Shown: positions 5,861 through 44,181 of the stretch, one piece after another
Layout: each line of letters begins with the position of its first letter
How positions within the stretch are numbered: position 1 is the first letter of the stretch
Source: a virus
Strand: one strand, 5' to 3'
Length of the DNA: 64,000 nt
Virus record (IMG/VR): IMGVR_UViG_3300032308_002092
Location: 1-64,000 of that record
Made by a program: the position numbers and the translations under genes
The notes under the pieces: model-generated
Database searches by the model: none
Told to the model about the DNA's origin: nothing
The model's input: only the letters and a program-made list of their open reading frames with translations

Positions 5861-5861
5861 T

Positions 5862-6212: not shown

Positions 6213-6215
6213 TGC

Positions 6216-24410: not shown

Positions 24411-26372
24411 ATGGCCAATTGGTTTGACGACCTACGAAATTCGCTGATAGACTCGTTGAAGTCTGACATCAAACAAGCCACTTTAACTGGCTTGGAAGAG
24501 CCACTCGAGAAGTCTGCCGCACCAGATAATGGTGAGACTGTGGGCCGCAAGGCGCTACTGCTCGATCCTTACTACGAGAACACCTCTGCCAACTACTACC
24601 TCACTAGAGGTAGACTATCTCGTATCTCAAACAGGACGCTCAAGGACATATCGGTTCGCGACTGGCTTGTTTCCGTAATCATTCAAAACCGCGTAGACAC
24701 TTTCCTACGCTTTGCTAGACCTGCCCACGACCGCTTCAAGATGGGTTACAAGTTCTCCCGCCGCGATGGTCAACAGGTGACAGATGAAGACAGAGAGCAG
24801 ATTCATTTTCTAGAAAACTTCGTCTACAATTGCGGCAGAACAGACAGTCTCCCCAGTGGCGATGAGATGAACTTCGGTGAGTTCCTAAAACTGACCGTCA
24901 GAGACGCACTTACGTTTGGCTACATCGGTGTCGAGAAGATCCTCACCAGAAGCCAAACACTACACCGCTTCCGACCAATCCCTGCTGAGACTCTCTATAG
25001 GATCAACCCGCAGAGCAGCAGGGAAGTGGTTGAACAAACTGCAGAAAGTGCTAGGTCTACCTACCACAGGAAGAAATCAGACAACGATCCCAAGTCAGAA
25101 GGTACCATATACCCACGTGAGATCGACTACTACAAATACGTTCAAGTCACTTCAGATGGGTTGCCTATTGCTGTGTTTGGTGACGAAGACCTTATCTTCA
25201 AACTAGCCAACGCACAGAACTTCGCTGACTCCAATGGCTACTGTATCTCAGTGGTTGAGCAAGCTGTGATCATGATCACCAGCCACTTGAATGTAGAGAA
25301 CTACAACGCAAACTACTTCACCCACGGCTACGCTTCCAAGGGTATACTGCACCTCAAGGGTACGGTCACACAGAATGCGCTAGCTGCGTTTCGCCGTCAA
25401 TTCTACAACACCATCTCTGGTACTCAGAACGCTTGGCGCACACCTATAGTCGCTGGTCTAGATGATGTACAGTGGGTGCCAATGTCTGGCTCCGCTAGAG
25501 AGATGGAGTATATCAACTTCAACTCGCATATCATGCGTGCCATCTGCGCTCAGTTCCAAATCGACCCGATCGAAGTCGGTCTAGACTACCTCACTTCGGC
25601 CAATGGTCGTGCTGCATCCAATGCCAAGGAATCAGGCCAATTCAAGATCACCTACTCCCGTGAGCGCGGCTTATTGCCACTACTGCTCATGGTCGAAGAC
25701 ATGATCAACAGCGATATAATCAAGGCCTATGACTCGGAGTTGGCCGATAAGTATATCTTCAAGTTTCATGGCTATGACGATAACACCGCTCAGACTGACG
25801 TGGCACTGCGCCAAGCCCAGATGACTACGTTTGCTTCGATGAATGACCTGCTAGTAGCAGAGGGTAAGAAGAAGATAGAGCTACCAGTGGCTGATGTGCC
25901 GCTGAACCAATCTTTCTGGGGCTTGATTGAGAAAAACTACACTCGTGGCGAAATTAGAGAGTTCTTCTTCGGTGACAAAGGTGCATCTAAGCGACCTGAA
26001 CTCCAGTATCTGCCTGCTGATCCACAGTTCCTAGCTTGGTCGCAGATGCTCCTAACCATGTCTTCCCAGAAGAAGCAAATGGAAGACCAGAAGGAAGCAC
26101 AAGAGCAACAGCAGCAACAACAGCAGCAGCAGTTGGAGCAACAGCAGGAGCAAGCCGACCACGACAAGCAGCTACAGCTAGGCCAAGACCAACGTGAGCA
26201 AGAAAAGCACAAGCAAGAGATGTCTACTGTAGAAGATCAGAAAGCACAAGCAGCAGTCAACCATGGCCAAAGTCTACACGACGCAGCGAAGTTATTTGGC
26301 GCCAGTGGCGCAGACCACGTGGGTGGCAAGATAATGAAGAACCCAATGAATTTGTTTTCAGATGAAGAATAA
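24411..26372 (+). CDS. Portal protein
   Basis: Follows TerL; YNANYFTHG..KGIL, NAWRTPIV, EMEY, FQIDP.E.G portal motifs; poly-Q C-terminal extension. Confidence 0.9.
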   Translation: MANWFDDLRNSLIDSLKSDIKQATLTGLEEPLEKSAAPDNGETVGRKALLLDPYYENTSANYYLTRGRLSRISNRTLKDISVRDWLVSVIIQNRVDTFLRFARPAHDRFKMGYKFSRRDGQQVTDEDREQIHFLENFVYNCGRTDSLPSGDEMNFGEFLKLTVRDALTFGYIGVEKILTRSQTLHRFRPIPAETLYRINPQSSREVVEQTAESARSTYHRKKSDNDPKSEGTIYPREIDYYKYVQVTSDGLPIAVFGDEDLIFKLANAQNFADSNGYCISVVEQAVIMITSHLNVENYNANYFTHGYASKGILHLKGTVTQNALAAFRRQFYNTISGTQNAWRTPIVAGLDDVQWVPMSGSAREMEYINFNSHIMRAICAQFQIDPIEVGLDYLTSANGRAASNAKESGQFKITYSRERGLLPLLLMVEDMINSDIIKAYDSELADKYIFKFHGYDDNTAQTDVALRQAQMTTFASMNDLLVAEGKKKIELPVADVPLNQSFWGLIEKNYTRGEIREFFFGDKGASKRPELQYLPADPQFLAWSQMLLTMSSQKKQMEDQKEAQEQQQQQQQQQLEQQQEQADHDKQLQLGQDQREQEKHKQEMSTVEDQKAQAAVNHGQSLHDAAKLFGASGADHVGGKIMKNPMNLFSDEE

Positions 26373-26402: not shown

Positions 26403-27203
26403 ATGACCATACAAGACAATGAAGACATACTGGGGTCGGTAGAGAGCATTAGGCGTAGGTTTAAAACTGAAGCCAAACGCGACCCTGACGCCGTAAAGAT
26501 GTCCTTCCTAGATGAGGTCAATGCGCTAGTCCGCAAGATCTTTCGCGAAGATGACGTTAGTGTCTACGATGCGTTCTCGCCAGAGATGCTTGAAAAATGG
26601 AAGCGACGTCGCCTCAGGCGTCTACTGAGTAAGGTAAACCCACACAAGATTTTCTTGTTCCTACTGTTGCTGACCATAACCGGTTTCTTGGTCACTCAAG
26701 CCTTACCCTTCTATGCTCTTGACGGTGTGATATCCACAAGCACTTGGGTGCAAGCTATACTCACTGAGATTTGCTTTGTGTTCGTCAGCTCATACAGGGC
26801 GGTTGGGTGGTTTCAGACCTCCATCGCCTACGTAGCTAGAGCTGGGATATTCTCACTGATGCTCTTTGTAGTGTCGGCTGAGGTGTTGATGCAGGGTACC
26901 AATCAAGTCAATGAGATCAACGTCATTGCCCAGAAGATAGAGATCATCCAAGAGCAGATAAAGCAGAAGGATGATCTGATCAAGTTCTACAGGGACAAGG
27001 GTTGGGGAAACTCTACTAAGAAGCAGTCTGATGAGAAAGATGCTCTACTGAAGGAGCTACTGAACCTCAAGAACCAGCAGATAGAAGGTAAGAACCAGGA
27101 AGTCTCAGATATAGTTCAGTACAAGACATGGGGTAAGGCGTTCTTTCGAGTGGTCTTGATTCTCATGTCCGTACTGATCTCTAGGCGACTATTCAGTCTC
27201 TAG
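26403..27203 (+). CDS. Multi-TM membrane protein with coiled coil
   Basis: Three to four hydrophobic segments and a heptad region. Confidence 0.7.
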   Translation: MTIQDNEDILGSVESIRRRFKTEAKRDPDAVKMSFLDEVNALVRKIFREDDVSVYDAFSPEMLEKWKRRRLRRLLSKVNPHKIFLFLLLLTITGFLVTQALPFYALDGVISTSTWVQAILTEICFVFVSSYRAVGWFQTSIAYVARAGIFSLMLFVVSAEVLMQGTNQVNEINVIAQKIEIIQEQIKQKDDLIKFYRDKGWGNSTKKQSDEKDALLKELLNLKNQQIEGKNQEVSDIVQYKTWGKAFFRVVLILMSVLISRRLFSL

Positions 27204-30220: not shown

Positions 30221-30556
30221 ATGGAAAATCTAGTAAAGAACAATTTGGGGCAATGGAGTCTACAGAAATCAGGCGGGGAAGATATTACCTTTAAGCATAA
30301 AGAGCATACGCATTTGCCGCAGACTGGAAAAGATGGTGAAAGGCCGATTGGCGCTATGGATCATCACTCTTTCGATGTTTATCATAAGGGTAACCACATA
30401 GGTACAGCTAATGCCCTGCACGAGTCTGATGATATACACCCTACTGGTATCGATGTAAGCGGTAGGCACCCAAACGAAGTCAAGCAGGCCTTTAAGCGCC
30501 ACTTGAATGGTAATTGGAAAAAATACACATCGATGTCGCCAACTTACGGAAAATAG
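30221..30556 (+). CDS. Small protein with N-terminal GQWSLQKS leader (putative internal head cargo)
   Basis: ATG 30221 after GGAGG; MENLVKNNLGQWSLQKS. Confidence 0.75.
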   Translation: MENLVKNNLGQWSLQKSGGEDITFKHKEHTHLPQTGKDGERPIGAMDHHSFDVYHKGNHIGTANALHESDDIHPTGIDVSGRHPNEVKQAFKRHLNGNWKKYTSMSPTYGK

Positions 30557-30624
30557 TACCTAATACTATTTAGTTCATTGCTGTTAAGTGCAAATCAATG
30601 CCCAGTTTAAGCCGATTGTCTATC

Positions 30625-30638
30625 GATATAGTATAATA
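30625..30638 (+). promoter_or_regulatory. Promoter GATATAGTATAATA (copy 2)
   Basis: Upstream of the protease RBS. Confidence 0.65.
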
Positions 30639-30658
30639 GTCCATTGGAGGATTGTAGT

Positions 30659-31504
30659 ATGTCAATCGAGATCGATATGTGCGCAGGAAGTGCCTTGCGG
30701 GACACCCAGGGCGAGATACTAGATATCGAGGGCGCTGACATCAGTGAGCTCGAAGCCGGGCGCGGGATCTTCAACGACAACCATAGTTCAAAACTCCCCG
30801 ACGTGCTTGGTCGCGTAACTAAAGCTAAGAAGATCTTTAAGTTAGAAGACTGCGAAGACGACCGTCAACGCTACTACTGGAACAAGATTAAGGCGCCATA
30901 TATCTACGTTAAGGGTAGGCTCTGGAACGACCCTGCTCACCGCTCTGCTAACGCGGCCGCAGCCATCCTACGCAATCAGTTCTCCGAAGATTCACCTTTA
31001 AAATTAAAGGCTTCTGTCGAAGGCGGAATTATAGAGCGCGGCGGTAACGACGACAGGGTCCTCAAGCGCACCAAGATCAAAGGGGTGGCTCTCACTTTTA
31101 CCCCGGCTAACAACGCGACTCTAGTCGAGGGCCTCAACCTCGCCAAGTCTGCCATCACCCCTCAGGACCAGGCCCTCATCAAGTCCATGATCCCGCTAGC
31201 CCAAGACAATGTGCCTACCTTCATCGAGATGGCTGACACCCTGTCCGAGTCTAAGATCCACAGGAATGTCAACAAGATACGCTCCCTAGTTAAAGCTCTG
31301 TCTGCTGGCGTAGGTGCAGGTGCCCCAACTGATAGAACCGGTGGCCAAGTGCTGCAGACCGAGAGCCTCGAGGGAGACGGTAAGCAGATCGAGTGTCCGA
31401 GCTGTGGCAAAGGGCAACACTACTTTCGTCATCAAGTTAAGTGCAGAAGTTGCGGAAAGTCCTTTCCTTTCGATACCTTAGCCAAGTTCTTCATCAAGAA
31501 GTAG
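30659..31504 (+). CDS. Prohead (maturation) protease, HK97/assemblin-like, with C-terminal MCP-like arm and zinc ribbon
   Basis: RDTQGE, FNDNH (His), ASVEG (Ser), VALTFTPAN; upstream of scaffold and MCP. Confidence 0.85.
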   Translation: MSIEIDMCAGSALRDTQGEILDIEGADISELEAGRGIFNDNHSSKLPDVLGRVTKAKKIFKLEDCEDDRQRYYWNKIKAPYIYVKGRLWNDPAHRSANAAAAILRNQFSEDSPLKLKASVEGGIIERGGNDDRVLKRTKIKGVALTFTPANNATLVEGLNLAKSAITPQDQALIKSMIPLAQDNVPTFIEMADTLSESKIHRNVNKIRSLVKALSAGVGAGAPTDRTGGQVLQTESLEGDGKQIECPSCGKGQHYFRHQVKCRSCGKSFPFDTLAKFFIKK

Positions 31505-31505
31505 T

Positions 31506-31631
31506 ATAAGGCAACCCCTCTCCAGGTTTGACCTCGCTGACCCTGTACAATTGAAACAAGCTCACCACTATACCAACCTGCAGCCTCTATGGGCTGAAGA
31601 TAATTTATCTAAGTCGAATAAAGTATTATAA
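31506..31631 (+). pseudogene. C-terminal remnant of an HNH endonuclease
   Basis: Frame reads IRQPLSRFDLADPVQLKQAHHYTNLQPLWAEDNLSKSNKVL*; no start codon or HIDH segment. Confidence 0.75.
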
Positions 31632-31708
31632 GTATAAGATAGTTATGGCTAATAGTGGCCATGTGATATACTATAGTAATGTCATAGCCATAGACAAAGG
31701 AGATAAAC

Positions 31709-32095
31709 ATGGCCAACAATAGGTTCGTCCTTGATAAGATTGCTCGTAACCTAGAGCAATACGGTTTAACAGTTACCCGTGGTTCCGCCGGCCAAGTACT
31801 CGCTGCTGGACTCACGGTTTCCTACAACGATGCAGTTATTCAGTCACCAATGGGCGGTGTATCTGATGCTGTTTCACCATTTCTCGGTGTTGGTATTGCT
31901 AACCCTGGCAAGTTGAAAGTGAAAGGCGGAGCGGGACAAAATACTCTCGCTGCTATCCTTGGCACTGCTGACGACGTGACTGTTTGGTCAATCGTAGCTC
32001 GATTTGCTAACGACGCTTCTATCGAAGCTGGCGACACTGCTACTGAGCTCCTTGCTCTCCGCGGTCACCCAGATATGCTAGCAGTTGGCGAGTAA
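31709..32095 (+). CDS. Small head-module protein (possible decoration or minor capsid protein)
   Basis: AAGGAG RBS, between protease and scaffold, codon style like the MCP. Confidence 0.7.
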   Translation: MANNRFVLDKIARNLEQYGLTVTRGSAGQVLAAGLTVSYNDAVIQSPMGGVSDAVSPFLGVGIANPGKLKVKGGAGQNTLAAILGTADDVTVWSIVARFANDASIEAGDTATELLALRGHPDMLAVGE

Positions 32096-32123
32096 TCATC
32101 AACCAAGGGAAAGGGGACTAGAT

Positions 32124-32846
32124 ATGGATAACCTCCAGAAAAGCCTGACAGAGCTCATTGATGAGACACTGGCAGAAATCGAAGCCCTCAAGAAGTCTGA
32201 ACGCTATTCCGCTCATGAGATCGACCTTGCTGATGAGAAGGCAAACGGTTCCATGGACGCTAAAGCGGTAGCTAAGGCTGAAGAGGACGACGAAGAAAAA
32301 GAAGATGAAGGCAAAGAAGAGTCTGAAGAAGCTAAGAAGTCTGACGATGAAGACGAAGACGACGAAGACAGCGAAGACGACGAAGCCGACATGAAGAAAG
32401 CTGAAGAAGCTTGCGCAAAAGCTCTCAAGAAATATGAGATGGCGAAAGCCGAAGCTGAGCACAAGAAGAAGATGCTTGCAATGAAAAAAGGCGAGTCGGC
32501 TAAGAAGTCTGACGACAAAGATGAAGATGACAAGGACGAAGAGAAGGACCTTAAGAAGTCCATCGACGCCCGTGTTGCTCCGATCGAGTCGAAGCTTTCA
32601 GAAGTCCTCTCAGCAGTCAAGAAGCTCTCCGAGACTCCGGTTCCAGCACGTGGTGCTAGCTACCGAGACGTGAAGCCTCTTGCAAAATCAATCGAAGTTG
32701 AAACGCTCACAAAGGCTCAAGTCCTGAATGAGTTGGTCAGCTTGAAGAAATCAGGTAAGGAAGTTCTGTCGGAAGACGTTATTCAAGTAGAAGACGGTTC
32801 TGCAGATCACCTAACTATGGCTCGTAAATACGGCATCAAGGCTTAA
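32124..32846 (+). CDS. Capsid scaffolding protein
   Basis: ATG 32124; very acidic helical protein directly before the MCP; many xxK(S/A) sites. Confidence 0.8.
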   Translation: MDNLQKSLTELIDETLAEIEALKKSERYSAHEIDLADEKANGSMDAKAVAKAEEDDEEKEDEGKEESEEAKKSDDEDEDDEDSEDDEADMKKAEEACAKALKKYEMAKAEAEHKKKMLAMKKGESAKKSDDKDEDDKDEEKDLKKSIDARVAPIESKLSEVLSAVKKLSETPVPARGASYRDVKPLAKSIEVETLTKAQVLNELVSLKKSGKEVLSEDVIQVEDGSADHLTMARKYGIKA

Positions 32847-32866
32847 ACTTTAGAAAGGAGTATAAG

Positions 32867-34315
32867 ATGCTACAGGATTCTTTGAATCAAATCCTTGCTG
32901 GAGTTGAGCAAGGGCTTATCAGTCAGGAAGAGGTCGAAAACCTCTCCAAGGCATTGTCTGCAGGCGCAGGCTATGCTGGTCGTCCAACAGACCTCACCCA
33001 CGGTGGAGTCCTTCAAACAGAGTCGCTCGAAGCTACCCTCAAAGTAGTTACGTTCGACATGAAGAACCTTAAGTTGTGGCCATCCATCTCGATGGATAAG
33101 GCTACTAACTTGTTCGAACAATACAACCGCATTACCGGCTACGGTTCTGACGCTTCACCTTACATCGGTGAAGGCGGAGCTGGACAAGAAGAAGACAGCA
33201 CCTACGTTCGTGACGGACAAAGGATTGCATTCTTCTCTGAGCGCCGTAAGGTTACACACCAGATGACTCTGGTTAAGACCACGGTTGGCGACGTCGTTGC
33301 CCAACAGAAAAAAGAAGGCACGATGAACCTCCTCAAGAAGGTTGAGCGCGAACTCTACTGGGGTCACGCACACTTCGTTTCTGCTACTGGTCAATTGACT
33401 GGCCTCGAGCAAGACCTTCCTCCAAACTCAATCGCAATGAGCGGTCTCTTCAAGCAGATCCTCAAGGGCGACAGGGACATTCAGTTCCGTTCGGGTGACT
33501 TCGATGGTTGGGGAGCTGAGCAGCAATCTGTTGTTCGCGATCTCCAAGGCCTTTCCTTCAGCCAAGACGACGTTGAGTCTCTCGCTGTAGCAATCATGGA
33601 GAACTTCGGTACTCCAGGTGAGCTCCACGCTGAGCCTGCAGTTATCTCTGCTTTCGTTAAGACCTTCTATCCTCAGTTCCGTTCTGAGCCAGGTCTTGCT
33701 AACCAGACTGTCGGCTATGACGTAGCTAAGGTTACGACTACTGCTGGTCCTATCGACCTCAAGCCTAGCTTGTTCCTCCGTCCACGTCAAGGCGTTCGCC
33801 CAGTTGGCGTGAATGCTAAGGCTCCATCAACCGCTGGCTTGTCCATCGCTGGTGCTGCTGCTGGTTCTGGATCTAAGCTTGCTGCTGGTACATACGCTTA
33901 CGCTATGACCTTCGTCAATGACTTCGGTGAGTCCGCTCCTATCTTCTCGGCTGGCGTTGCAGTTACTGCAGGCCAGAACGTTACGATCACTGTTACTGGT
34001 ACCATCCCTGCTGACGTCAAGTACGTCAAGATCTTCAGGGCTGCTTCTGGTGCAGCTGCTGCCACGGCTCAGTTCGTTACGAACCACCGCCTTGGTCAAG
34101 CAATCGTTGACGCTGGTGAGAAGAGACCTGGACTCGGCGAAATGTTCCTCTTGGACATGAAGCCAGAGTCGATGAGATTCAAGCAATTGATGCCACTGAG
34201 CTCAATGCCTCTCGCCGTAGTTACGACTGCAATCGAGTTCCTGGTAATCATGTACGGAAGCCTTTTCGTGTATGCTCCTAGGTTCTCAGGTATCCTGAGG
34301 AACGTCGGTAAGTAA
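32867..34315 (+). CDS. Major capsid protein (HK97 fold, SPO1/Twort-like N-terminus, Ig-like insertion)
   Basis: KAL.AG..TD..GG.LQ.ESL N-terminus, ELYWG, GTYAY...NDFGES insertion; strong RBS and downstream terminator. Confidence 0.9.
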   Translation: MLQDSLNQILAGVEQGLISQEEVENLSKALSAGAGYAGRPTDLTHGGVLQTESLEATLKVVTFDMKNLKLWPSISMDKATNLFEQYNRITGYGSDASPYIGEGGAGQEEDSTYVRDGQRIAFFSERRKVTHQMTLVKTTVGDVVAQQKKEGTMNLLKKVERELYWGHAHFVSATGQLTGLEQDLPPNSIAMSGLFKQILKGDRDIQFRSGDFDGWGAEQQSVVRDLQGLSFSQDDVESLAVAIMENFGTPGELHAEPAVISAFVKTFYPQFRSEPGLANQTVGYDVAKVTTTAGPIDLKPSLFLRPRQGVRPVGVNAKAPSTAGLSIAGAAAGSGSKLAAGTYAYAMTFVNDFGESAPIFSAGVAVTAGQNVTITVTGTIPADVKYVKIFRAASGAAAATAQFVTNHRLGQAIVDAGEKRPGLGEMFLLDMKPESMRFKQLMPLSSMPLAVVTTAIEFLVIMYGSLFVYAPRFSGILRNVGK

Positions 34316-34343
34316 TTGTAACGATTACTGAACCTCCTCTAGT

Positions 34344-34385
34344 AAGATGGGCTTATCCATAGTGGTAAGCCCATCTTTATTTTTG
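34344..34385 (+). terminator. Intrinsic terminator after the MCP
   Basis: AAGATGGGCTTA / TAAGCCCATCTT 12-bp stem followed by TATTTTT. Confidence 0.85.
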
Positions 34386-34437
34386 CCTAAAATGGTTTCA
34401 CTAGCCCTCTAAATCCCCTCAGTACAATATCATTATC

Positions 34438-34575
34438 ATGAATCCCAAACCATTTTTTACAAACTACAGGCATGTCACTAGGCTGCTAAGGTCTCTAGCT
34501 AAACTAGAAGTTGTACATGCTGATAGCATCCAAAACGGTCTGGTATTTAAGGTAGCGGGTCGAACACACGGGTGA
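34438..34575 (+). CDS. Possible small leaderless ORF (45 aa)
   Basis: ATG about 10 nt after AGTACAAT; no SD; ends just before the next RBS. Confidence 0.35.
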   Translation: MNPKPFFTNYRHVTRLLRSLAKLEVVHADSIQNGLVFKVAGRTHG

Positions 34576-34587
34576 ACGGGAGACTAC

Positions 34588-35028
34588 TTGAACATATTCG
34601 TAACCAGTAACTGCCCTAAGCGCAACGCTAGGCTCCTGGACAACAAGAGGCTGGTCAAGATGGTGCTAGAGACCACCCAGCTGCTCAGCAACACCTTGTG
34701 GCACCACTATGGCTCTGGACCATACAAAACAACCCATTTAAACCATCCCTGCAGCGTGTGGTTGCGTCAGTCTGGCGGCAACTACTGGTGGACTGTTCGC
34801 CTACTGGAGGAGATGTGTGCAGAGTATACCCGAAGGTACTGCAAGGTACACAAGTGCCAAGGCTTACTGCCTATGTTTCAGTCGGCCACCGTCGATGAAC
34901 AGCCCATGACTCCTTTCGTGAATTGTACCGATTTCAAGGACTTACCCACCTTCGCTGCGTACCGTAAGGCGATGCGAACCAAGTGGGCGAACGACAAACT
35001 CCCTCCCAGATGGACTTCCCGAACCTAG
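34588..35028 (+). CDS. Pyrimidine-dimer DNA glycosylase / endonuclease V-like protein
   Basis: MNIF...D.K...KM.LE..QLL, YK.TH.NHPCS.W, EYT.RY.K.H family pattern. Confidence 0.8.
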   Translation: MNIFVTSNCPKRNARLLDNKRLVKMVLETTQLLSNTLWHHYGSGPYKTTHLNHPCSVWLRQSGGNYWWTVRLLEEMCAEYTRRYCKVHKCQGLLPMFQSATVDEQPMTPFVNCTDFKDLPTFAAYRKAMRTKWANDKLPPRWTSRT

Positions 35029-35045
35029 TCTTCGGGTATAACTCC

Positions 35046-35055
35046 GTGGTATAAT
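35046..35055 (+). promoter_or_regulatory. Extended -10 promoter GTGGTATAAT heading the cargo block
   Basis: TGn-TATAAT, preceded by a CCCGAA/TTCGGG hairpin. Confidence 0.65.
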
Positions 35056-35087
35056 GTCTAGTGAATACCTCACCATGGAGAAATTAA

Positions 35088-35420
35088 ATGAGGGCGTCCA
35101 ATATACTCTCTGGCGCACAGAGAACTTCCGAAGTAAGCTTGGTTTGGAAAGAGATAAACTCTGGTGGCGGAGCCAGCCAGATAGAAGTACCTAGGCACAC
35201 AGCTATTCGAGTGCGTGCGACTGCTGGCACCGCTATTTCATTGGATGGCATCCTCGCTGCCACCATGATCAATGGCGAGATCTTGGTCTTCAACTCTGGC
35301 CTTGGTGAAAACTACGGCAGGGTTAGCGACCCAAAGAACACCGTGACGCTGGCTTGGACTGGCACGTGCTTCATTCAACTGGGCATGGAGTCACAAGAGC
35401 AATGGCAGGATGATATCTAA
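35088..35420 (+). CDS. Hypothetical beta-rich protein
   Basis: GGAG RBS; coupled to the next gene. Confidence 0.7.
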   Translation: MRASNILSGAQRTSEVSLVWKEINSGGGASQIEVPRHTAIRVRATAGTAISLDGILAATMINGEILVFNSGLGENYGRVSDPKNTVTLAWTGTCFIQLGMESQEQWQDDI

Positions 35421-36433
35421 TGTCTAAGGCAATTAGGGAGCTGCTGCTCCGCAAGACAGACAACCCAAACCTCCGCTTCTTGATCCAGTCTGCGTCCGAT
35501 AAAGCCATCCAAGACATGGTTGTCGAGTCACTGGAGAAGATGGCGTCTTACGCAGGTAAGAAGGCCATCAAGATGAACGCGGCCGTCAGGGACTTCCTAA
35601 ACAACTCCCTAGCAGAGACACAAGCAGGCGAGCCGAGTCCTATGGAGCATCTCCGAGACGCACTTGGTCATCACGCTTCCCACTACACTGCGGCTAGGCA
35701 AAACGGCAACCAAGCGCTTGCCGATGAGCACGCGAAGCAGTTCCTCAAGCTGGGCCACCTAGCCCACAAGTTAGACTCTGGCTCTAAGACTATTGCTAAC
35801 TTCGAGCACCACGATGACATGGACTACAAGATCGGCATGCTGGATGCTGCCAAGTTCGATGCGCCCGACCTTCAGGCGTGGCAAGCTACTAGTCCACAAC
35901 ACTTCGCGAACCGCCACAAATCCTCTGGAGTTGATCTCCCTGGCTGGCGCGCATACCAAAAGCAAGACGGCGTTCGCAGCCGAGGCGACGGCGTCAACGA
36001 GCCCAACAAGTTCAGCTTCGCTTGGCTCGCGAACAACCCTCACCCAGACCACAAAGATATCGGTAAGCACATGATGATGGGTCACGACGAGTCTGGCTAC
36101 CCCATGGAGCAAGTACAAGTCAACGGCAAGCATATCCCAGTGGGTGTCGTAGAGTACAACCCTAAAGATTTTAAGCCTAACCCAAATGGCTCTGGCGATA
36201 AAGTTCACTCGCCACATCCATTTGATTACCATCCGATAGTCCAGCACTTCGATGAGTCGCCAGAAGAGCACGCACCTAAGGCAGAGCAGTACAAGAACAA
36301 GCTCGCTCTGTTCCACGGCGGATCACACGGTCTAGCCCTAGCAACTAAAGGCGCGGAACTCGCTCAACCAGACCACGGCAAAGAACCTGGACTAGTGGTG
36401 CATCCTAAGGTGAAGGTAGAGAACAATGCCTAA
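35420..36433 (+). CDS. His-rich hypothetical protein (putative internal head protein)
   Basis: Coupled start; LEKM site after an N-terminal helical leader. Confidence 0.7.
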   Translation: MSKAIRELLLRKTDNPNLRFLIQSASDKAIQDMVVESLEKMASYAGKKAIKMNAAVRDFLNNSLAETQAGEPSPMEHLRDALGHHASHYTAARQNGNQALADEHAKQFLKLGHLAHKLDSGSKTIANFEHHDDMDYKIGMLDAAKFDAPDLQAWQATSPQHFANRHKSSGVDLPGWRAYQKQDGVRSRGDGVNEPNKFSFAWLANNPHPDHKDIGKHMMMGHDESGYPMEQVQVNGKHIPVGVVEYNPKDFKPNPNGSGDKVHSPHPFDYHPIVQHFDESPEEHAPKAEQYKNKLALFHGGSHGLALATKGAELAQPDHGKEPGLVVHPKVKVENNA

Positions 36434-38984
36434 GGGAGTAATCAAGACCAAGTCGCAAGAGAAGAAGTGGGACAAGGCCAAGGAAGCAGCTGCCGACCAA
36501 GGTAAGTCACAGCGCTGGCCGTTAATCATGCACATTTTCAAACAAATGGGCGGTCTCAACAAAGAAGACAACGACCGCAACGCCAAGATCGAGGCGGCAC
36601 TAGCGGCACAGGGTCGTAAGACTACTATCCCACAGGAAGCCCACGACGTTTTACACTCTTGGTGGTCCACAAATAAAGATCAAGTGCTCTCACCTGAGAT
36701 GAAGCAGCGAATGGCTGACATCAAGGCTCCAAAAGAGAAAAGAGCACAGTTCAAGATCGTCAAGTCCAAGCAAGAAATTCTAGATCTCCAGAAGTCACTA
36801 GAGTACCTCAAGACAGCTGTGTCCTCTGATCTGTTCAAGGCAAAGTCTACGAGACCAGAGTGGTCGCCGTCTAGGCAATATTCGGCCCAAGACACGGCAG
36901 CCATGCAACCACACCTCGACGCGGGTCACTCGCTACAGGAAGCTGCACACCTATCTGGGGTAGATCCGACTAGGTCTGGCCACTCGCACCAAGTGTCCGA
37001 GCTCTCCCCAGCGATGATGCAGCGTGCCAAAGCAGCTGCGCTAGACTGGGTCTCCAAGACGAAGCAACGTGAGGCACTCGAAGCCAAACCAGAGCACAAC
37101 CCAGAGAAGTTCGTATCCGGTAAGGCAGCAGAGATAGGACAGTCAGCTTCTGCAGCGGCTAAGTCGTACGCCGACTCGCTCAAGGAGCACAAAGCCTCTA
37201 TCTCACACATGCCTCCAGATGAGCAACTGAAGTCTATCCAGAAATTCAAGTCAGACTGGCACGCTTCCCCAGCGGCTAAAATGGCACACGTAGATGCAGC
37301 TAAGTCCCACGCTGATTTCACCTCGCAGGCTAAGGAAGCTAGATCTAAGGAACTGTACGAGCAGAGGAAGAACATCCTCATGGGTGGTCAAGGCCTTGAC
37401 TCACCCATGTCGACCCATACCGACTCAGCTATGGACCGCGACGAAGATGTCTTGTCGCAAGAAGACCTAGAGGATATCCATGGTGGCGACAGTCATCTGG
37501 GAAAAACTAGGCCCAACATCGAATTTGCAGATATTTTAGAAAAGATTTCTAAAAAGCAAAGCATGCAGATGTTGGGCAACGATCCTAAGGCCAAAGAGAT
37601 TGCCGACTTCATCTCAGATAAAAAACTACGAGACGATACGGGAAACTGGCTTATTCGTAACTATAGAAAAGATCCCAGTATTTGGAACGATGAAAATAAG
37701 AAAGCGATAGAACATTTTTCTGGTATGGGCCATGCAGATGAGGTAAATAAGGTTAGGTTTAGCAAAGACCACGACTTCAACTCAGGCATACAGATGTGGA
37801 AAGATGCAGAGAAGAAGTACCAAGATAAACATGCTGAATCAGGTCACCTTATAGAGCCGGACAGCAACACTAAAAAGATAGTTGATCTCGGCAACGGTTG
37901 GGGTTGGCACGACCTTGGTAAGGGCTCTTGTAGCAAAGAGGCTAAGGCCATGGGTCACTGTGGCAATGAGCCATCTGAAGTTGAGGGTGATCGAGTACTG
38001 TCGCTTAGGCACGACAAGAAGATAGGCGATAAAACTTATCATGAGCCACATCTTACCTTTATTGAAAATGGCGGCACCTTAGGTGAGATGAAAGGTAGGG
38101 CAAATGAGAAACCAAACCCAAGGTATCACCAAGCTATAGCAGAGTTACTCAAGAACCCAAGGATACATACCCTGATGGGTGGCGGTTATGCAGAAGAAAG
38201 CAACTTTGGCCTAAAAGACATGGATCCAAAGTTGGTCCAAGAGATAAAAGCTAAGAACCCTAGTTTAGAAGAAGGTATTACTAAAGAAAATATAGATAAA
38301 ATGCCCAAAAAATACATCGAGAATGTGTTGCAATCCCCACATGCCACTCTAGCTCATGTGGATAAAGCTATGAACGATGAAAATGACTATGTTAGAGCAG
38401 CAGCTGTGCGCTCACCACTCGCTACTTCAGCTCATGTAGATAAAGCTATGAACGATAAAGATTGGGGTGTTAGATTCGCTGCTCTAGAGTCCCCTCATGC
38501 TACTGCAGCTCACGTAGATAAAGCCATGAATGATGATCACGAGAATGTCAGATTGGCCGCACTTAGATCGCCTCATTTCACCTCAGCTCACGTGGATAAG
38601 GCTATGGATGATGAGAGCCCTGATGTTAGAGGTACCGCAGTGAGATCCCCACATGTTACTCCAGCTCACGTAGATAAAGCTATGGATGATGAACATTGGT
38701 ATGTCAGAGAAGCAGCATTTAGCTCTCAACACGCCACTCCAGCCCACATAGATAAAGCCATTAACGATAAGAGTTACGATGTTACAGCTGCTGCACTTAA
38801 TCATAATGCAACTACCCAAGCTCACATAGATAAAGCCATGAATCACAAGGACCCTGATATTAGAGCGCTGGCGGTAAATTCTCGCCATGCTACTCCAGCC
38901 CACATAGATAAGGCTATGAACGATAAAGACCCTGGCGTAAGGGAAATTGCTAGAGAAGTAAAACAAGGAAGGATGGCTCAATAA
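36426..38984 (+). CDS. Multidomain putative internal head protein with PcfJ-like domain and C-terminal HEAT/LRV-type repeats
   Basis: LQKS/LFKA sites; EAKAMGHCG...VLSLR...PHLTF...EMKGRANEKP; eight 26-aa repeats. Confidence 0.75.
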   Translation: MPKGVIKTKSQEKKWDKAKEAAADQGKSQRWPLIMHIFKQMGGLNKEDNDRNAKIEAALAAQGRKTTIPQEAHDVLHSWWSTNKDQVLSPEMKQRMADIKAPKEKRAQFKIVKSKQEILDLQKSLEYLKTAVSSDLFKAKSTRPEWSPSRQYSAQDTAAMQPHLDAGHSLQEAAHLSGVDPTRSGHSHQVSELSPAMMQRAKAAALDWVSKTKQREALEAKPEHNPEKFVSGKAAEIGQSASAAAKSYADSLKEHKASISHMPPDEQLKSIQKFKSDWHASPAAKMAHVDAAKSHADFTSQAKEARSKELYEQRKNILMGGQGLDSPMSTHTDSAMDRDEDVLSQEDLEDIHGGDSHLGKTRPNIEFADILEKISKKQSMQMLGNDPKAKEIADFISDKKLRDDTGNWLIRNYRKDPSIWNDENKKAIEHFSGMGHADEVNKVRFSKDHDFNSGIQMWKDAEKKYQDKHAESGHLIEPDSNTKKIVDLGNGWGWHDLGKGSCSKEAKAMGHCGNEPSEVEGDRVLSLRHDKKIGDKTYHEPHLTFIENGGTLGEMKGRANEKPNPRYHQAIAELLKNPRIHTLMGGGYAEESNFGLKDMDPKLVQEIKAKNPSLEEGITKENIDKMPKKYIENVLQSPHATLAHVDKAMNDENDYVRAAAVRSPLATSAHVDKAMNDKDWGVRFAALESPHATAAHVDKAMNDDHENVRLAALRSPHFTSAHVDKAMDDESPDVRGTAVRSPHVTPAHVDKAMDDEHWYVREAAFSSQHATPAHIDKAINDKSYDVTAAALNHNATTQAHIDKAMNHKDPDIRALAVNSRHATPAHIDKAMNDKDPGVREIAREVKQGRMAQ
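38334..38957 (+). repeat. Eight tandem 78-bp (26-aa) coding repeats
   Basis: Consensus SPHAT.AH(V/I)DKAMND....VR.AA.. Confidence 0.9.
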
Positions 38985-39649
38985 TGGCCGATGATCACAA
39001 GAAAGTCCTAGACTACATCCTCGCCTCCCACTCACCTACGATTGGCGGGACCATACATCGTATGCGCGAGAAGTACCCCCATCTGAAAGACCAGGATCCG
39101 GGTGATCTCTACGAAGCTGCGACCAACGCGGCCATGACCGCTATCCACGGCCACGACCCAGACCGCGGCGCTAAGCTGTCGACCTACATGAGTCAGAAGA
39201 TCGCCAACGCCTTGCTTCAGCGCTTTCAACCTAGAGACGTAGCTGCAACCGACAGGGCAATGGCATCTGCAACTAGACCCGCGCAACAGCGTGACGTCGA
39301 CAGCGTAAGATCCACTGCGCCTTCTGCCTCCCGCGGCGAGATCGAGTCTGCTGGCGGTTCGGTGTCAGAAGACGGAGCTACCTCGGGTGTCTCAATCATA
39401 CGTAATACGGCAGCTGACTTTGCGGCTAGGAATCCCCACATACGGGCAGAGCTAGAGCGCAAGACAAAGAACTACGAGGCACAGCAAGCGAAGAAGCAGC
39501 CAGTGGTGCAAGAAGCGCCACCAGAGCTGCCCAAGCCTAAACCAGAGCAGCCGAAGATGATCGTCCGCAGGAAGCAAGTAGAGTCTTCACTGCAGCCAGA
39601 GCACCTAGATAGAATGAAGCGAATCGATGGGAAGAAGGTAACAGAGTAA
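38984..39649 (+). CDS. Sigma-70 region-2-only protein with disordered tail
   Basis: DLYEAATNAAMTAIHGHDPDRGAKLSTYMSQKI resembles sigma region 2.2-2.4; no region 4. Confidence 0.6.
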   Translation: MADDHKKVLDYILASHSPTIGGTIHRMREKYPHLKDQDPGDLYEAATNAAMTAIHGHDPDRGAKLSTYMSQKIANALLQRFQPRDVAATDRAMASATRPAQQRDVDSVRSTAPSASRGEIESAGGSVSEDGATSGVSIIRNTAADFAARNPHIRAELERKTKNYEAQQAKKQPVVQEAPPELPKPKPEQPKMIVRRKQVESSLQPEHLDRMKRIDGKKVTE

Positions 39650-40470
39650 TGTCAAAGACCAATACACCAGATATCCCAATATACCCATTTCAAGCAACTG
39701 AGCTCGACAACTCGGTCGATCGCTATGGCGAGATACCCACAGTACAGACCATGAGAGATGTCTATTTGTTTGGCGTACCCCTCAAGTCCTCACTCACCGG
39801 ACAAGAAGTCAACGACACGATGATACAGACTTTCATCAATGCTGCTATTGGGCAACTCGAGATGGATCTGAATATCACCATCACGCCAACTACTTTCGAT
39901 GAGCGCCACGACTGGATTAGGCAGCAGTGGACCCACTCGTTTGGATGGCTGAAGCCAAACCACAGACCTATCATCAACGTGTCTGAGATGTCAATCGTGT
40001 TTTCGAATGACGAGCAGCGCTCAGTAACATTTCCCAATGAATTCATCTATGTTAACTCGCAAGATGCCGCGATACAGGTAGTCCCAGCGATCGGTACGTC
40101 AATGCAAGGCTTCCTAGTCTCAGTGTTCGCTGGTTCCCAGATGTGGGCACTATACAGTCAAAACCTAGGTTCGTTCCCCGGAGCAATTAGAGTTGTGTAT
40201 AAGGCGGGCTTCGAGAAGGACAAAATTCCATACATGATCTCCTCACTTATTGGGTTGATCGCTTCGTATAAACTACTTACGAACATAGGTCCGTTGATCT
40301 TCCCATTTGGGTCGTACTCGATAGGCGCAGACGGCTTGTCACAGTCGATCTCAAGCCCGGGTCCGCAGTTCTTGGCACAAAGGATCAACGACCTAAAAGA
40401 TCAGATAGAGCAAGAGATGCAGATAGCAAGACACTACTTCCTGGCTTCGCCACAGATAGATTGGTTGTAA
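39649..40470 (+). CDS. Head-tail connector/neck protein
   Basis: I..AI..LE.DLNI.I.P, RPIINV, V.YKAG, S.S.GADGLSQS pattern of large-phage neck proteins. Confidence 0.7.
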   Translation: MSKTNTPDIPIYPFQATELDNSVDRYGEIPTVQTMRDVYLFGVPLKSSLTGQEVNDTMIQTFINAAIGQLEMDLNITITPTTFDERHDWIRQQWTHSFGWLKPNHRPIINVSEMSIVFSNDEQRSVTFPNEFIYVNSQDAAIQVVPAIGTSMQGFLVSVFAGSQMWALYSQNLGSFPGAIRVVYKAGFEKDKIPYMISSLIGLIASYKLLTNIGPLIFPFGSYSIGADGLSQSISSPGPQFLAQRINDLKDQIEQEMQIARHYFLASPQIDWL

Positions 40471-40472
40471 CA

Positions 40473-41435
40473 ATGAAGATAAAAGCACTACACAAAGGCA
40501 AGTGGCACGACGTCAAAGATATCACCAAGTGTGACGATGGCGTAGAGTATCAACTAGAGGGTATCAACGGCAAGACCTATGCCAAGGACATCAAGGACCT
40601 TGACCTAGATAAAGGTGAAGTCACTAACCCAGATGGGTCAGTAACTCGTTTCCCCGGCAAGGAGCAGCTTAAGAAGCCCTTGGCTAAGGGTATAAATCTA
40701 ATGGACAAATGGGCATTACTGAAGGCTCGTCTCAACCACAAGAACGCCTTCCAAGACATGGATATATTTACCGATGATGACGAAGAAGCCGATGACGACC
40801 GAGCTGACGGTTCCACAGACGCTGATAGCGCTGGAAGCATACCGGGAGGACCTGGAGGCCAAGAACGAGCTGGATACGACCAAGATCCTAATTCGCCTGG
40901 AGGTGATCAGGCAGGAGTTCCGCAGGAAGATCCACGTGGACTCCTACGAGATGATGGACGGGGAGGAGCTGATCAGGAAGCAGATCGACCGGTCCAGGAT
41001 AATGAAGGACTTCAGCAACCTGATGCCGCCTCAGAGGAAGGCCCTGGTGAACCTACTGATAACGCTGAACAGTCTGGAGATCTTCCGCCACTAGAAGGTG
41101 AAGAACTACAAGAAGCCTTGAAAGAGATCGGCTACTCTGACACCGAGATAGCATACATCCTACACGGCCATTCGCCTGCGATTCCCTCACCTGAGGAGCT
41201 TAAGGCGCAGCAATCACAGCAGAACATGTCTCAAGACCAAGAGGGTCACCACCTCACACTAGACCAACGCACTGAGGAACACGACGTAGACCTAGATCAC
41301 AAGAAGAAGATGCACGAGCTAGAGCTAGAGTACGCTAAGCGTGAGAAAGAGCTTAAACTGAAGCATCTGGAAGAGGAACTAGCCATAAGGCGCGATAAGA
41401 TGAAGAGTAAGGATTCTTCTGGAGGTGCTAAGTGA
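40473..41435 (+). CDS. Acidic low-complexity protein with C-terminal coiled coil
   Basis: ATG 40473; LDKG/LAKG sites; central disordered segment. Confidence 0.7.
   Translation: MKIKALHKGKWHDVKDITKCDDGVEYQLEGINGKTYAKDIKDLDLDKGEVTNPDGSVTRFPGKEQLKKPLAKGINLMDKWALLKARLNHKNAFQDMDIFTDDDEEADDDRADGSTDADSAGSIPGGPGGQERAGYDQDPNSPGGDQAGVPQEDPRGLLRDDGRGGADQEADRPVQDNEGLQQPDAASEEGPGEPTDNAEQSGDLPPLEGEELQEALKEIGYSDTEIAYILHGHSPAIPSPEELKAQQSQQNMSQDQEGHHLTLDQRTEEHDVDLDHKKKMHELELEYAKREKELKLKHLEEELAIRRDKMKSKDSSGGAK
40774..41094 (+). CDS. Nested overlapping ORF (+1 frame) encoding a predicted helical ~100-aa protein
   Basis: Globular composition and G/C-ending codons in this frame, while the host frame is disordered over the same span. 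Confidence 0.5.
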   Translation: MMTKKPMTTELTVPQTLIALEAYREDLEAKNELDTTKILIRLEVIRQEFRRKIHVDSYEMMDGEELIRKQIDRSRIMKDFSNLMPPQRKALVNLLITLNSLEIFRH

Positions 41436-42652
41436 GCGAAGAGATCAAGAAATCTAAGAACGGCCAATGGGTGCTAGAGAAATCCTACTCCGACGAGGAA
41501 AGAAAGAGAAGAAACCGCGCTAGGTTCTTTGCGTCGCAAGCAGAAGAGATGAAGCAGCAGAAAGAAGAAGACAAAGAGGCTGACAGAAAAGCAAACTTGT
41601 CTAATCCGTTTACGGGTCGTATCGACTCATTCAAGCCTGAAGATCCAAAAGCCGATTGGAAGAGCCGAATAGAAGATATCAGCAACAACCCTCTCTCAAC
41701 CAAGCCGGGCGTGGACTCCTCTAGTATGCAGCTGTCCCCTCAAGTTGCTTTTCAGCAAAAGAAAAAAGCCATGGCTCAAGCAGAGGCTAATACCAAGGCT
41801 GTTCAAGATGCGAATCACCAAAAGCACATGGGTGAGATACTAGCGGGCAGGAAGCAGCCAGTGACCATGTGGGAGAAAGCCGCTCTAGTTGCGCACATGA
41901 AGCAAAAACACGCAGAGATGTCTGCACCAAAGTCGAGTCCACAGTCGGTTAAGTCAGGCTCGCAACCAGTAAAGCCTAGTGGCATGATAGTAAGAAGAAA
42001 AGAAGACATGAATAAATCAGACATGAGTAAAGCAGACTACGAGATGGATATGTCAAACCTCATCGAGCTACTACATCATATCAAAGAGCTAAAGGCCAAC
42101 CTACAAGAAGGCGATGAGCTCCCAGACTGGGTCTCAGCTAAGTTGACCCTTGCTACCGACTACCTCTCCCGCATTGCTCACTATGTCGACGGCAAGAAGG
42201 AGATGGATAGCCCGCTCAACAAGATCGCACAGCTAGAGAAAGCACTCAAGGACCTCAAGAAAGAAGATGCTTACTGGCAGAACAAGAAGCCAGTGAACCA
42301 GATCGACCGCGAGAACCAGAAGGCGGTACAGCAGTATCGCCAACAAAAGATGGGTGTTGGTCAAGGCTCTGGACCAGATGTCCAAGTAGGCTCTGCACCT
42401 AGACTTACAGGTGTAGCTAAAGAGTACCAAATGGGTACTACTAAATCCAATAAGCCCATCATGTCGTGGCCAGAGCATGTAGCTCACAATGACTTTAATG
42501 AGGCAGATCACGGCGAAGCTTTCGCTGCACACAAGAAAATTAGGGACGAGCTACGCGCTGACCGAGGTGCTAATCCTAAGTTGGCAGATCACCACCACAA
42601 CGCTGCCGAGTATCACTCCAAGATGCAAGCGAAGCTGAGGTCTGGTAGATGA
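41432..42652 (+). CDS. Putative internal head polyprotein with KNGQWVLEKS leader
   Basis: GGAGG RBS, GTG start; sites MNKS, MSKA, LEKA; ELPDWVSAKLTLATDYL module. Confidence 0.75.
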   Translation: MSEEIKKSKNGQWVLEKSYSDEERKRRNRARFFASQAEEMKQQKEEDKEADRKANLSNPFTGRIDSFKPEDPKADWKSRIEDISNNPLSTKPGVDSSSMQLSPQVAFQQKKKAMAQAEANTKAVQDANHQKHMGEILAGRKQPVTMWEKAALVAHMKQKHAEMSAPKSSPQSVKSGSQPVKPSGMIVRRKEDMNKSDMSKADYEMDMSNLIELLHHIKELKANLQEGDELPDWVSAKLTLATDYLSRIAHYVDGKKEMDSPLNKIAQLEKALKDLKKEDAYWQNKKPVNQIDRENQKAVQQYRQQKMGVGQGSGPDVQVGSAPRLTGVAKEYQMGTTKSNKPIMSWPEHVAHNDFNEADHGEAFAAHKKIRDELRADRGANPKLADHHHNAAEYHSKMQAKLRSGR

Positions 42653-43311
42653 GCAGATGCTGGGAAGGATACAAGCCCACTCCGGGTAAGAAGCCTTACT
42701 CAGAAGGCTCTTGCATAGAGAAGACAGACTTCGAGCCCGACAGCCAATATGTAAAAGTGTCGGGTCACGATGGGTGGCATAAAATTCTAGATATTAAAGA
42801 CACCAACATCCCAGCGCACAAGCCTGGCGGCGGCAACAACTATACGGTGCAGTGCGTTAAAACAGGCAAAAAGCAAGTAGTGCATCAGTCTAAGGTTTCT
42901 TCTCATTCTTTTGGCGACGACATAGAAGAGCTGAGTAAGTCTGCTGTTGTTTGTTTTTACAGTGATGGATCCGTAGACTACGTTGCAGCTCATGATTTTA
43001 GCGAAGCAGCTGAGTCAGCGTTAATTAAACACCTAGAGTCACTAGGTTACACTGAAGACCTATCTAAGGGTCTCAAAGCAGAGCACAAGTCATCTAAGGG
43101 CGGCATGACTGCTGCTGGTGTTGCGGCTTATCGTCGCGAGAACCCAGGCTCTAAGCTTCAAACTGCGGTTGGAGAGAAGAACCCAACTGGTAAGCGAGCA
43201 AAGCGCAGACGTTCGTTCTGTGCAAGGATGTCTGGTAACGATGGCCCTATGAAGGATGACAAGGGTAGACCAACTAGGAAGGCTCTGGCGCTCAGAAGAT
43301 GGAGATGCTGA
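42649..43311 (+). CDS. Putative internal head protein with CWEGY module and C-terminal DUF6321-like basic domain
   Basis: CWEGYK...GSC; LSKS and LSKG sites; GG.TAAG...Y.R.NPGSKL...RR.SFCARM.G...ALRRW.C. Confidence 0.75.
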   Translation: MSRCWEGYKPTPGKKPYSEGSCIEKTDFEPDSQYVKVSGHDGWHKILDIKDTNIPAHKPGGGNNYTVQCVKTGKKQVVHQSKVSSHSFGDDIEELSKSAVVCFYSDGSVDYVAAHDFSEAAESALIKHLESLGYTEDLSKGLKAEHKSSKGGMTAAGVAAYRRENPGSKLQTAVGEKNPTGKRAKRRRSFCARMSGNDGPMKDDKGRPTRKALALRRWRC

Positions 43312-43736
43312 TGAGCTTAATCTCTTTTGCTAAAAATGGTCAGTGGCGCCTCAACAAATCAAGCGGTATCTCGCTGGACAAGATCAACCACTTCGAGGGA
43401 TCCGACCTTGCTCCCGCAGAGCATCACTACTCAGTGAACAAAGACGGCAACTCCATCGGTAGAGCTATAGTCTTCGACAAAGACCCTAAGTCTATACACG
43501 AAGCGGGTAGGACAGGTCCATCACTAAAAGATATTCGCCTCAAGCCAGAGCATCAGGGGCAAGGCCACAGCAAGCAGATCATAGACCAACTGACCGCAAT
43601 TCACGGTCCTCTTTCTTCCGACTCCAGGGGTAATATCTCTGCTGCGGGCAGCAAGATGTTCGACGCCTACGGTACAAAACACAAAGACAGCAATGGAACT
43701 AGTTTTCACGTGCTAGGAGACCATGATGCCAAGTAA
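43311..43736 (+). CDS. GNAT-fold acetyltransferase-like protein with KNGQWRLNKS leader
   Basis: TGATG-coupled start; IRLKPEHQGQGHSKQII acetyl-CoA motif A. Confidence 0.7.
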   Translation: MSLISFAKNGQWRLNKSSGISLDKINHFEGSDLAPAEHHYSVNKDGNSIGRAIVFDKDPKSIHEAGRTGPSLKDIRLKPEHQGQGHSKQIIDQLTAIHGPLSSDSRGNISAAGSKMFDAYGTKHKDSNGTSFHVLGDHDAK

Positions 43737-44181
43737 GAAAGAACTGATCGCCGAGCACGAGAAACTAATCCCTGTGCTCCGAGAAGGTACAAAAGAAGAG
43801 CGCGAGAAGGAAGCCGACGAGCAGGAAGGCGAGCTCGCTGATATGAAGAAAGAGCAGCTGGTCTTTGCTAAAAACGGTCAATGGAGTTTAGTCAAGATGT
43901 CGAACTACGGTCCAAAAGGCGCTGGTCTCTATGACCCAGTGGTCAACTCTAAGCGTAAAGAGAACAACACGGGTCAATCTGTGGAAGATGCAGGCCGCAA
44001 CAAAAATGTCAAGGAATACACCAATATCCAAGGCACCGCCCAAGCACAGGCCAAAGCCCTTGCAGCCAAGCAAGCTAAACTTAACGCCAAGCAACCGGTG
44101 AAGACAGAGATCCCACCTGAGCTCAAGGCTAGGCTAGAGGCTGAGGCCAACAAGCCAAAAGAAAAAGAAAAGAAATCTTGA
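43726..44181 (+). CDS. Putative internal head protein with internal FAKNGQWSLVK motif
   Basis: AGGAG RBS; acidic N-part, motif, then basic C-part. Confidence 0.7.
   Translation: MPSKKELIAEHEKLIPVLREGTKEEREKEADEQEGELADMKKEQLVFAKNGQWSLVKMSNYGPKGAGLYDPVVNSKRKENNTGQSVEDAGRNKNVKEYTNIQGTAQAQAKALAAKQAKLNAKQPVKTEIPPELKARLEAEANKPKEKEKKS

Follow-up and report, generated by a model that had tools for sequence, protein, structure and literature searches.

Encapsulin cargo-loading peptides are short terminal peptides on unrelated cargo, which dock inside an HK97-fold shell and are not cleaved. For phage heads, loading through a short removable tag is, to our knowledge, well established only for T4 and its kin. 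In T4, a capsid-targeting sequence (CTS) is present on the internal proteins IPI, IPII, IPIII and Alt and is removed by the gp21 prohead protease (PMC3012670; PMC9026906). In the giant phages phiKZ, 201phi2-1 and SPN3US, the propeptides of head and ejection proteins are cut by a T4-like prohead protease (PMC10052503, PMC7411985). Here we describe a short peptide with the core N-G-Q-W, called the hairpin tag below, in the virus contig IMGVR_UViG_3300032308_002092 from IMG/VR. The contig is a single sequence of 151,207 bp with 49% GC, and the window analysed is its first 64 kb. With a probability of about one half, we read the tag as a T4-CTS-like cassette for head loading and processing, also used as a polyprotein joint, in a phage line with an SPO1-type capsid and a predicted Lys-cutting protease.

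A short peptide shared by otherwise unrelated proteins

In this genome the motif reads (M)-E-x-h-K-h-x-x-N-G-Q-W-x-L-x-K|S/A, the bar marking the predicted cut. Exactly six copies are present, five in the window and the sixth at genome position 106255, and four of the six are N-terminal. The first-pass annotation had reported a shared motif in five open reading frames (ORFs), and all five were found in frame and on the + strand. The copies are:

30221..30271, + strand: N-terminal hairpin tag of 17 aa on an ORFan of 111 aa (30221-30556); G at residue 10, ends L-Q-K|S, 25.5 bits
41432..41485, + strand: N-terminal hairpin tag on a 406-aa protein with GTG start (41432-42652); ends L-E-K|S, 27.2 bits
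43311..43361, + strand: N-terminal hairpin tag on a GNAT-like protein (43311-43736); ends L-N-K|S
43843..43899, + strand: internal hairpin cassette at residue 51 of ORF 43723-44181; ends L-V-K|M-S, 31.0 bits
8348..8401, + strand: C-terminal hairpin without the Lys cut site, in ORF 8000-8404; 25.8 bits
genome 106255, + strand: N-terminal tag of gene 106255-106731, outside the window, from the genome search

The 30221 copy has L instead of N ahead of G-Q-W. For the GNAT-like gene, the start at 43311 places G at residue 10, which is the most frequent spacing.

N-G-Q-W was seen 5 times in the proteome against 0.07 expected, and G-Q-W-x-[LI]-x-K 5 times against 0.014 expected. Because these counts far exceed expectation, a chance origin of the motif is excluded. 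No out-of-frame N-G-Q-W was found in any of the six frames. A hidden Markov model (HMM) of the tag gave 25-34 bits for the six copies, 3.6 for the next best match and 3.0 for the reversed-sequence control; the six copies were included in building the model, and the score gap is nonetheless large. In five related contigs, the N-G-Q-W DNA pattern occurred 16 times on the coding strand, and 0 times both on the other strand and in the reversed control.

The six tags share only 39-63% pairwise DNA identity, and the same codon is used at 40 of the 99 conserved, degenerate positions. Since the codons diverged while the peptide was retained, the copies are old and have been kept by selection at the protein level. 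Recent copying of the tag within the genome was rejected on the same codon evidence. The proteome counts, the HMM scores and the codon divergence show that the peptide reported earlier is real and selected.

Thirty IMG/VR contigs with 61-80% identity in the major capsid protein (MCP) were fetched as relatives, and the closer ones hold the motif repeatedly. A strict DNA pattern found 29 stretches in all of IMG/VR. The in-frame N-terminal ones all fall within this clade, and the rest look like chance, so a wide distribution across phages was rejected. A database profile built from 28 distinct tags, biased toward the S-N-Y-G-P-K family described below, recovered 68 proteins in a word-indexed search and 117 clusters (50% identity, E<=1e-3) in an exhaustive search. 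Three clusters were false positives, namely two true WD40 proteins (P0090, P0099) and one tandem-repeat protein. About 114 true protein clusters remain, all of them from uncultured phages and without a named protein. WD40 identity was rejected for the tag itself, since the phage proteins have one to three copies with unrelated spacers and not tandem blades of ~40 residues; WD40 blade hairpins as false positives do fit a beta-hairpin with an N/D-G turn. For all tagged proteins and several relatives, no Pfam or PHROG family was found for the tag or the S-N-Y-G-P-K module. A full-text literature search with the motif strings returned only unrelated antimicrobial-peptide papers. The motif is not covered by any Pfam or PHROG family, paper or named protein.

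The consensus of the tag is E(-7)-x-[LIV](-5)-K-[F/h]-x-x-N-G-Q-W-S-L-x-K, followed by S or A. Its position is fixed: among 86 N-terminal copies, 50 have G as residue 10 and 84 have it within residues 7-12. Most of the 16 C-terminal copies (12/16) stop 5-6 residues past G, ahead of Lys, and the remaining copies are internal, between modules. More than an N-terminal address, the tag is also found between the modules of polyprotein-like proteins and, with no cut site, at exact C-termini. Lys occupies position +4 in 168 of 237 copies; the residue after this position, counted over all copies, is S in 102 and A in 51.

In an AlphaFold2 (AF2) model of a minimal tagged family member, residues 3-6 and 12-15 form the hairpin strands (predicted local distance difference test, pLDDT, about 69); the rest is non-globular (predicted template modelling score, pTM, 0.26). 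The cassette of ~17 residues would be a short two-stranded beta-hairpin with an N-G turn; one face would present the conserved Trp and Leu, and the first strand a conserved Glu and a hydrophobic residue. Stop-codon read-through past the C-terminal hairpins was considered and rejected: in L098 a stop is reached again nine codons later, and what follows is a gene of its own. In L012 (17364-20636), a tagged 187-aa ORF and the following 902-aa ORF, GNAT-like plus HEAT, share one frame with a single stop between them, an arrangement that may be chance or read-through.

The internal cassette at 43843..43899 has a helical module of 40 aa before it and, after it, the conserved S-N-Y-G-P-K module, which is the C-part of 43723-44181. 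A later start at 43843, with which the motif would become N-terminal, was rejected, as the upstream 40-aa module is conserved at the protein level (seen in P0001, P0008, P0016, P0019 and P0043). In every relative [LI]-x-K|S precedes the S-N-Y-G-P-K module, and upstream of it stands either the tag only, or the 40-aa helical module plus the tag, or an unrelated 130-aa region without tag. With its constant boundary and variable upstream part, this junction looks like a maturation site. G, Q, W, K, S, Y and P are invariant in 35 members of the family, and the upstream part is variable. The ESM Atlas model of the 43723 protein is disordered and has no usable neighbours.

Among its carriers, the GNAT-like domain of 43311-43736 shows that the tag is portable. 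This domain is tagged here and in P0051, and untagged in P0022 and L012; in L012 it is fused to other modules. Its AF2 model has a pTM of 0.71, with residues 1-17 below pLDDT 50 and outside the fold (20-138). Pfam Acetyltransf_1 scored 18.1 bits, below the cut-off of 20.7, and the top Foldseek matches of the model were all GNAT enzymes, though weak (E about 4e-3, TM 0.42-0.49). The body of 41432-42652 holds a small helical module, which in relatives makes up proteins of 106-187 aa that are always tagged. In P0001, a near relative of the 43723 protein, an extra domain lies between two cassette copies, and in L009 this same domain is a separate tagged gene adjoining the protease gene. No homologue of the body of 30221-30556 was found in the relatives.

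The first-pass annotation had named interchangeable effectors as tagged cargo. The GNAT-like protein does carry the tag, with and without which its domain occurs; of the other two, neither the protein with HEAT repeats (36426-38984) nor the one resembling sigma region 2 (38984-39649) is tagged in this genome. The downstream segments form 54 unlinked families, which agrees with the idea of unrelated cargo. However, the cargo is less varied than claimed, because 125 of 202 segments (about 60%) belong to the S-N-Y-G-P-K family.

This dominance, the invariance of G, Q, W, K and S within that family and the heavily shuffled gene content of the block could also point to a functionless leftover. The hairpin would then be the N-terminal end of the S-N-Y-G-P-K family, captured by other genes through recombination together with the ribosome site and the first codons. 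We consider this very improbable. G-Q-W is invariant in 28 distinct clade instances in which the flanking residues vary, and synonymous sites are randomised among the six copies of one genome, as expected for old copies kept by selection. Capture of a start also does not explain the internal and C-terminal copies.

Many tagged proteins have His-rich bodies that are predicted to be poorly structured, often with H-x-x-x-H-like spacing. Examples are 30221-30556 and 41432-42652 in the window, 106255-106731 in the genome, and 100642-101541 in the relative G003 (IMG/VR 3300026455_000008). In G003 the large terminase is split into two ORFs (99048-103046, - strand) with two ORFs between them, one of which is a hairpin-tagged, His-rich protein of 299 aa.

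The predicted cut-site signature and the gene neighbourhood

The head genes of the window are:

22208-24328, + strand: large terminase (TerL)
24411..26372, + strand: portal protein, with L-E-K|S at residues 32-35
30644..31504, + strand: prohead protease (phrog_1028)
32085..32846, + strand: acidic scaffold-like protein with six L-x-K-[SA] sites, conserved in relatives
32867..34315, + strand: MCP of SPO1 type (phrog_752)
39649..40470, + strand: head-to-tail adaptor (neck) protein (phrog_772, phrog_442; PDB 8q01 adaptor/neck protein, E 1e-7)

The MCP has a predicted propeptide junction L-S-K28|A29 (32948-32953), and L-x-K|A is invariant in 18 distinct relatives. This MCP is ~30% identical to SPO1-type capsid proteins (phmmer against SPO1 Gp6.1, E 5e-55), and its K28 aligns with the junction Lys of SPO1 Gp6.1 and with K24 of a Staphylococcus phage MCP. 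For the latter, the deposited precursor has 463 aa (5lii_P) and the deposited mature chain has 439 aa, starting from S25 (9row_B). From these two deposited lengths, the shorter chain would be the natural processing product. The L-x-K|S/A ending of the tag matches the MCP propeptide junction, as the first-pass annotation had proposed, and this junction aligns with the N-terminus of the deposited mature Staphylococcus phage MCP.

The other L-x-K-S/A sites that had been listed, in the portal, the protease and the scaffold, are likewise all present. In some relatives the portal has L-T-K|S at the position of L-E-K|S. The motif L-x-K-[SA] was seen 6 times in the scaffold (0.67 expected) and 3 times in the protease (0.36 expected). 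In the protease, the C-terminal tail starts from L-V-K|A, whose K codon is at 31292-31294; the tail contains a repeat of the MCP N-arm and has a zinc ribbon at its end. Because S or A is preferred after the Lys of the tag and matches the MCP site, we take this Lys to be a protease site. The tag ends in a signature that matches the predicted cut site of the phage's own prohead protease.

The protease tail is also of note by itself. Its stretch at window 31292-31504 repeats about 30 residues from the start of the predicted mature MCP (32948-33040); the repeat begins exactly at L-x-K|A and is followed by the zinc ribbon, and this arrangement is conserved in all relatives examined. In L009 (5006-8036), L030, L020, L017, L019 and L026, the protease has a large insertion between the catalytic domain and this capsid-like tail. 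In L009, L030 and L020 the insertion consists of HEAT repeats with homology to the window's 852-aa protein, in its C-part (37500-38984 of 36426-38984). The HEAT-repeat insertion is an independent sign that variable domains are brought into the head in this phage line.

Tagged genes lie mainly near the head genes. By our count, 8 of 11 tagged families fall in the block from TerL to the neck. In whole contigs, most true copies either follow the MCP gene by no more than 12 kb or neighbour the genes for terminase and portal. More distant relatives have minimal tag-module-tag genes immediately after their MCP gene. Tagged ORFans adjoin the protease gene: 30221-30556 stands directly upstream of it in this genome (G000), behind a TAGTATAAT box, and a different one follows it in L009. 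A block of mostly unknown genes extends from the MCP gene to the adaptor gene and past it; since the adaptor gene is present, the 35-44 kb block is part of the head-neck module. The search over the full proteome and related phages, which the first-pass annotation had suggested, accordingly placed most tagged gene families in the head-neck block and one conserved family in the recombination block.

The latter family is represented by gene 8000-8404, which lies directly downstream of the SbcC-like gene, as it does in relatives. It lies among the replication and recombination genes, which are given here in order:

+ strand: helicase, GroEL-like chaperonin (3375-5087), SbcC-like, RuvC-like, SbcD-like, DNA polymerase, SSB

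The conserved place of this family beside the SbcC-like gene could mean that the hairpin docks to a hub other than the capsid, such as the GroEL-like chaperonin, a replication or recombination factor or a host protein, with L-x-K-S/A being only part of a strand. A chaperonin is indeed encoded by the phage, beta-hairpin peptides are common binding elements, and gene 106255 is located among early genes of the - strand. We regard such a hub as improbable. The head-neck block holds most tagged families, the minimal ones immediately following the MCP gene. A strand needs no small residue after Lys, whereas S or A there (153 of 237 copies, with Lys in 168) matches the MCP, protease and scaffold sites. 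Gene 106255, a lone + strand gene in its surroundings, lies on the late-gene strand behind the promoter-like box of the portal gene.

This box, TGGTATAAT, is common to gene 106255, the portal gene and gene 35088, and TAGTATAAT is found for the 30221 and protease genes. Both are extended -10-like and occur 14-54 nt upstream of gene starts, including those of the portal, the protease and two tagged genes. Their positions are:

+ strand: window 9601, 24378, 30175, 30630, 35048 and 48106; genome 106225 and 118499
minus strand: genome 90595 and 91010

Some neighbouring genes are also of note. Directly after the portal gene, a 266-aa protein (26403-27203) has several hydrophobic, membrane-like segments and no homologue in the relatives examined. 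The gene at 42649-43311 contains a C-W-E-G-Y module and DUF6321. The same pair forms the C-terminus of a 707-aa protein (5387-7510) between gp16 and gp17 of the T4-like cyanophage Synechococcus phage ACG-2014f (L099). DUF6321 is present in 93 phage records and annotated as hypothetical in all of them. At the N-terminus of 40461-41435, a small Trp-containing beta module (40473-40610) runs from G-K-W-H-D-V-K onward and ends L-D-K|G; it resembles the module that, in L015 and L006, stands in place of the hairpin ahead of the S-N-Y-G-P-K cut site, and may be a larger relative of the tag. Database comparisons found no close isolated phage for the MCP, the S-N-Y-G-P-K protein or the 852-aa protein. 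With tblastn against 50,697 phage records, the S-N-Y-G-P-K protein had no match and the 852-aa protein had a single distant one.

Possible roles: loading, processing or both

For the head-loading and processing cassette, the following mechanism is proposed. The hairpin would lead straight into L-x-K|S/A, the putative cut site of a Lys-specific prohead protease. When placed after the start Met, the hairpin may recruit its protein to the assembling prohead through the scaffold, the shell interior, the portal or the protease, and cleavage after Lys would free the cargo inside the head. Between modules, the cassette would connect the parts of polyprotein-like head proteins and be the place where these are cut apart. 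At the C-terminus, without Lys, the hairpin would be retained as an anchor. We infer the binding partner of the hairpin, the cleavage, the packaging and the ejection into the host; injection into the host is speculation.

Several results weigh against this mechanism. The residue after Lys is not always small (N, V, I, M and Y occur), and in one subfamily G replaces K. L-x-K-[SA] was seen 71 times genome-wide against 37 expected; because of this about twofold over-representation, it is a weak marker when used alone. AF2 gave the hairpin with moderate confidence in one protein and did not model it in the other, the GNAT-like one. The 8000-8404 family stands between the SbcC-like and RuvC-like genes, in the recombination block and not in the head block. 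The single family that accounts for most instances was favoured by the search profile. In INPHARED, no homologue was found.

The hairpin may instead be a processing joint only, without targeting, which presents L-x-K|S/A to the prohead protease, with head entry achieved otherwise or the cut made outside the head. Many copies are indeed internal, between modules (P0001, P0002, P0020, P0081), the S-N-Y-G-P-K cut site is kept where another upstream domain replaces the hairpin (L006, L015, L017), and the MCP, scaffold and protease sites need no hairpin. We nevertheless consider a pure joint unlikely. The C-terminal copies end ahead of Lys, so they have no cut site, yet they are conserved; because of these copies, the hairpin should have a role beyond being cut. 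Cutting off a bare N-terminal peptide of 16-17 aa would have no evident use unless the peptide had acted first, and the constant distance from Met suits a terminal recognition tag.

Conversely, the hairpin might be a general, position-independent address peptide that docks to the inner face of the HK97-fold shell or to the scaffold from an N-terminal, internal or C-terminal place, as the phage counterpart of encapsulin cargo-loading peptides. Joined to a Lys-specific cut site, it would enable this phage line to assemble and swap a whole set of head-delivered proteins and polyproteins. We hold this broader role to be rather doubtful.

If the main reading, a head-loading and processing cassette, is right, the same tag would double as polyprotein joint and C-terminal anchor. 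For uncultured phages of this group, proteins that are virion-internal and possibly injected could then be predicted by a simple sequence rule. Candidate factors that act early in host takeover or counter-defence would be found among the tagged proteins (GNAT-like, His-rich and unknown), and one could try to load foreign proteins into capsids of SPO1 type with the compact 17-residue tag.

Comparison with known systems

The C-terminal hairpins are similar to the terminal, uncleaved docking peptides of encapsulin cargo, although shell binding is hypothetical here. Encapsulins have no portal, protease or DNA, and their peptide is usually C-terminal and extended, without an N-G-Q-W hairpin. The terminase, portal, adaptor and tail-fibre-like genes of this genome rule out an encapsulin system.

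In the giant phages, as proposed here, many head-internal precursors are trimmed at a short consensus, and fusion-like and paralogous cargo exists. In contrast to the tag, their propeptides are long and share no single short sequence, the cut is made after Glu (S/A/G-x-E), and the capsid lineage is another one.

The capsid proteins of SPO1/Twort-like phages (SPO1 Gp6.1, PDB 9vel; Staphylococcus phage MCP, 5lii and 9row) are homologous to the MCP of this genome at about 30% identity. Their junction Lys is aligned with K28, and the deposited mature chain starts directly after it (h-x-K|S/A). A text search on these phages found no report of the MCP cut site attached to a portable hairpin on accessory proteins, and we know of none.

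The T4 CTS, already invoked in the first-pass annotation, is the closest analogy. Both are short, conserved peptides at the extreme N-terminus of otherwise unrelated, fast-evolving proteins and end at a prohead protease cut site, a predicted one for the tag; they also have in common a gene linkage to head assembly and an interchangeable cargo. There is no likeness in sequence, however, and the tag here is a predicted beta-hairpin with an N-G turn and Trp. Cleavage is predicted after Lys and not after Glu as for the T4 gp21 type, the protease matches phrog_1028 only, and the MCP is of SPO1 type and not a homologue of T4 gp23. The cassette also occurs between modules and at C-termini. The principle of loading is already known from T4. 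Should our reading hold, the T4 solution would have arisen independently in a phage line that pairs an SPO1-type capsid with a Lys-cutting protease, and with a structurally different, beta-hairpin tag.

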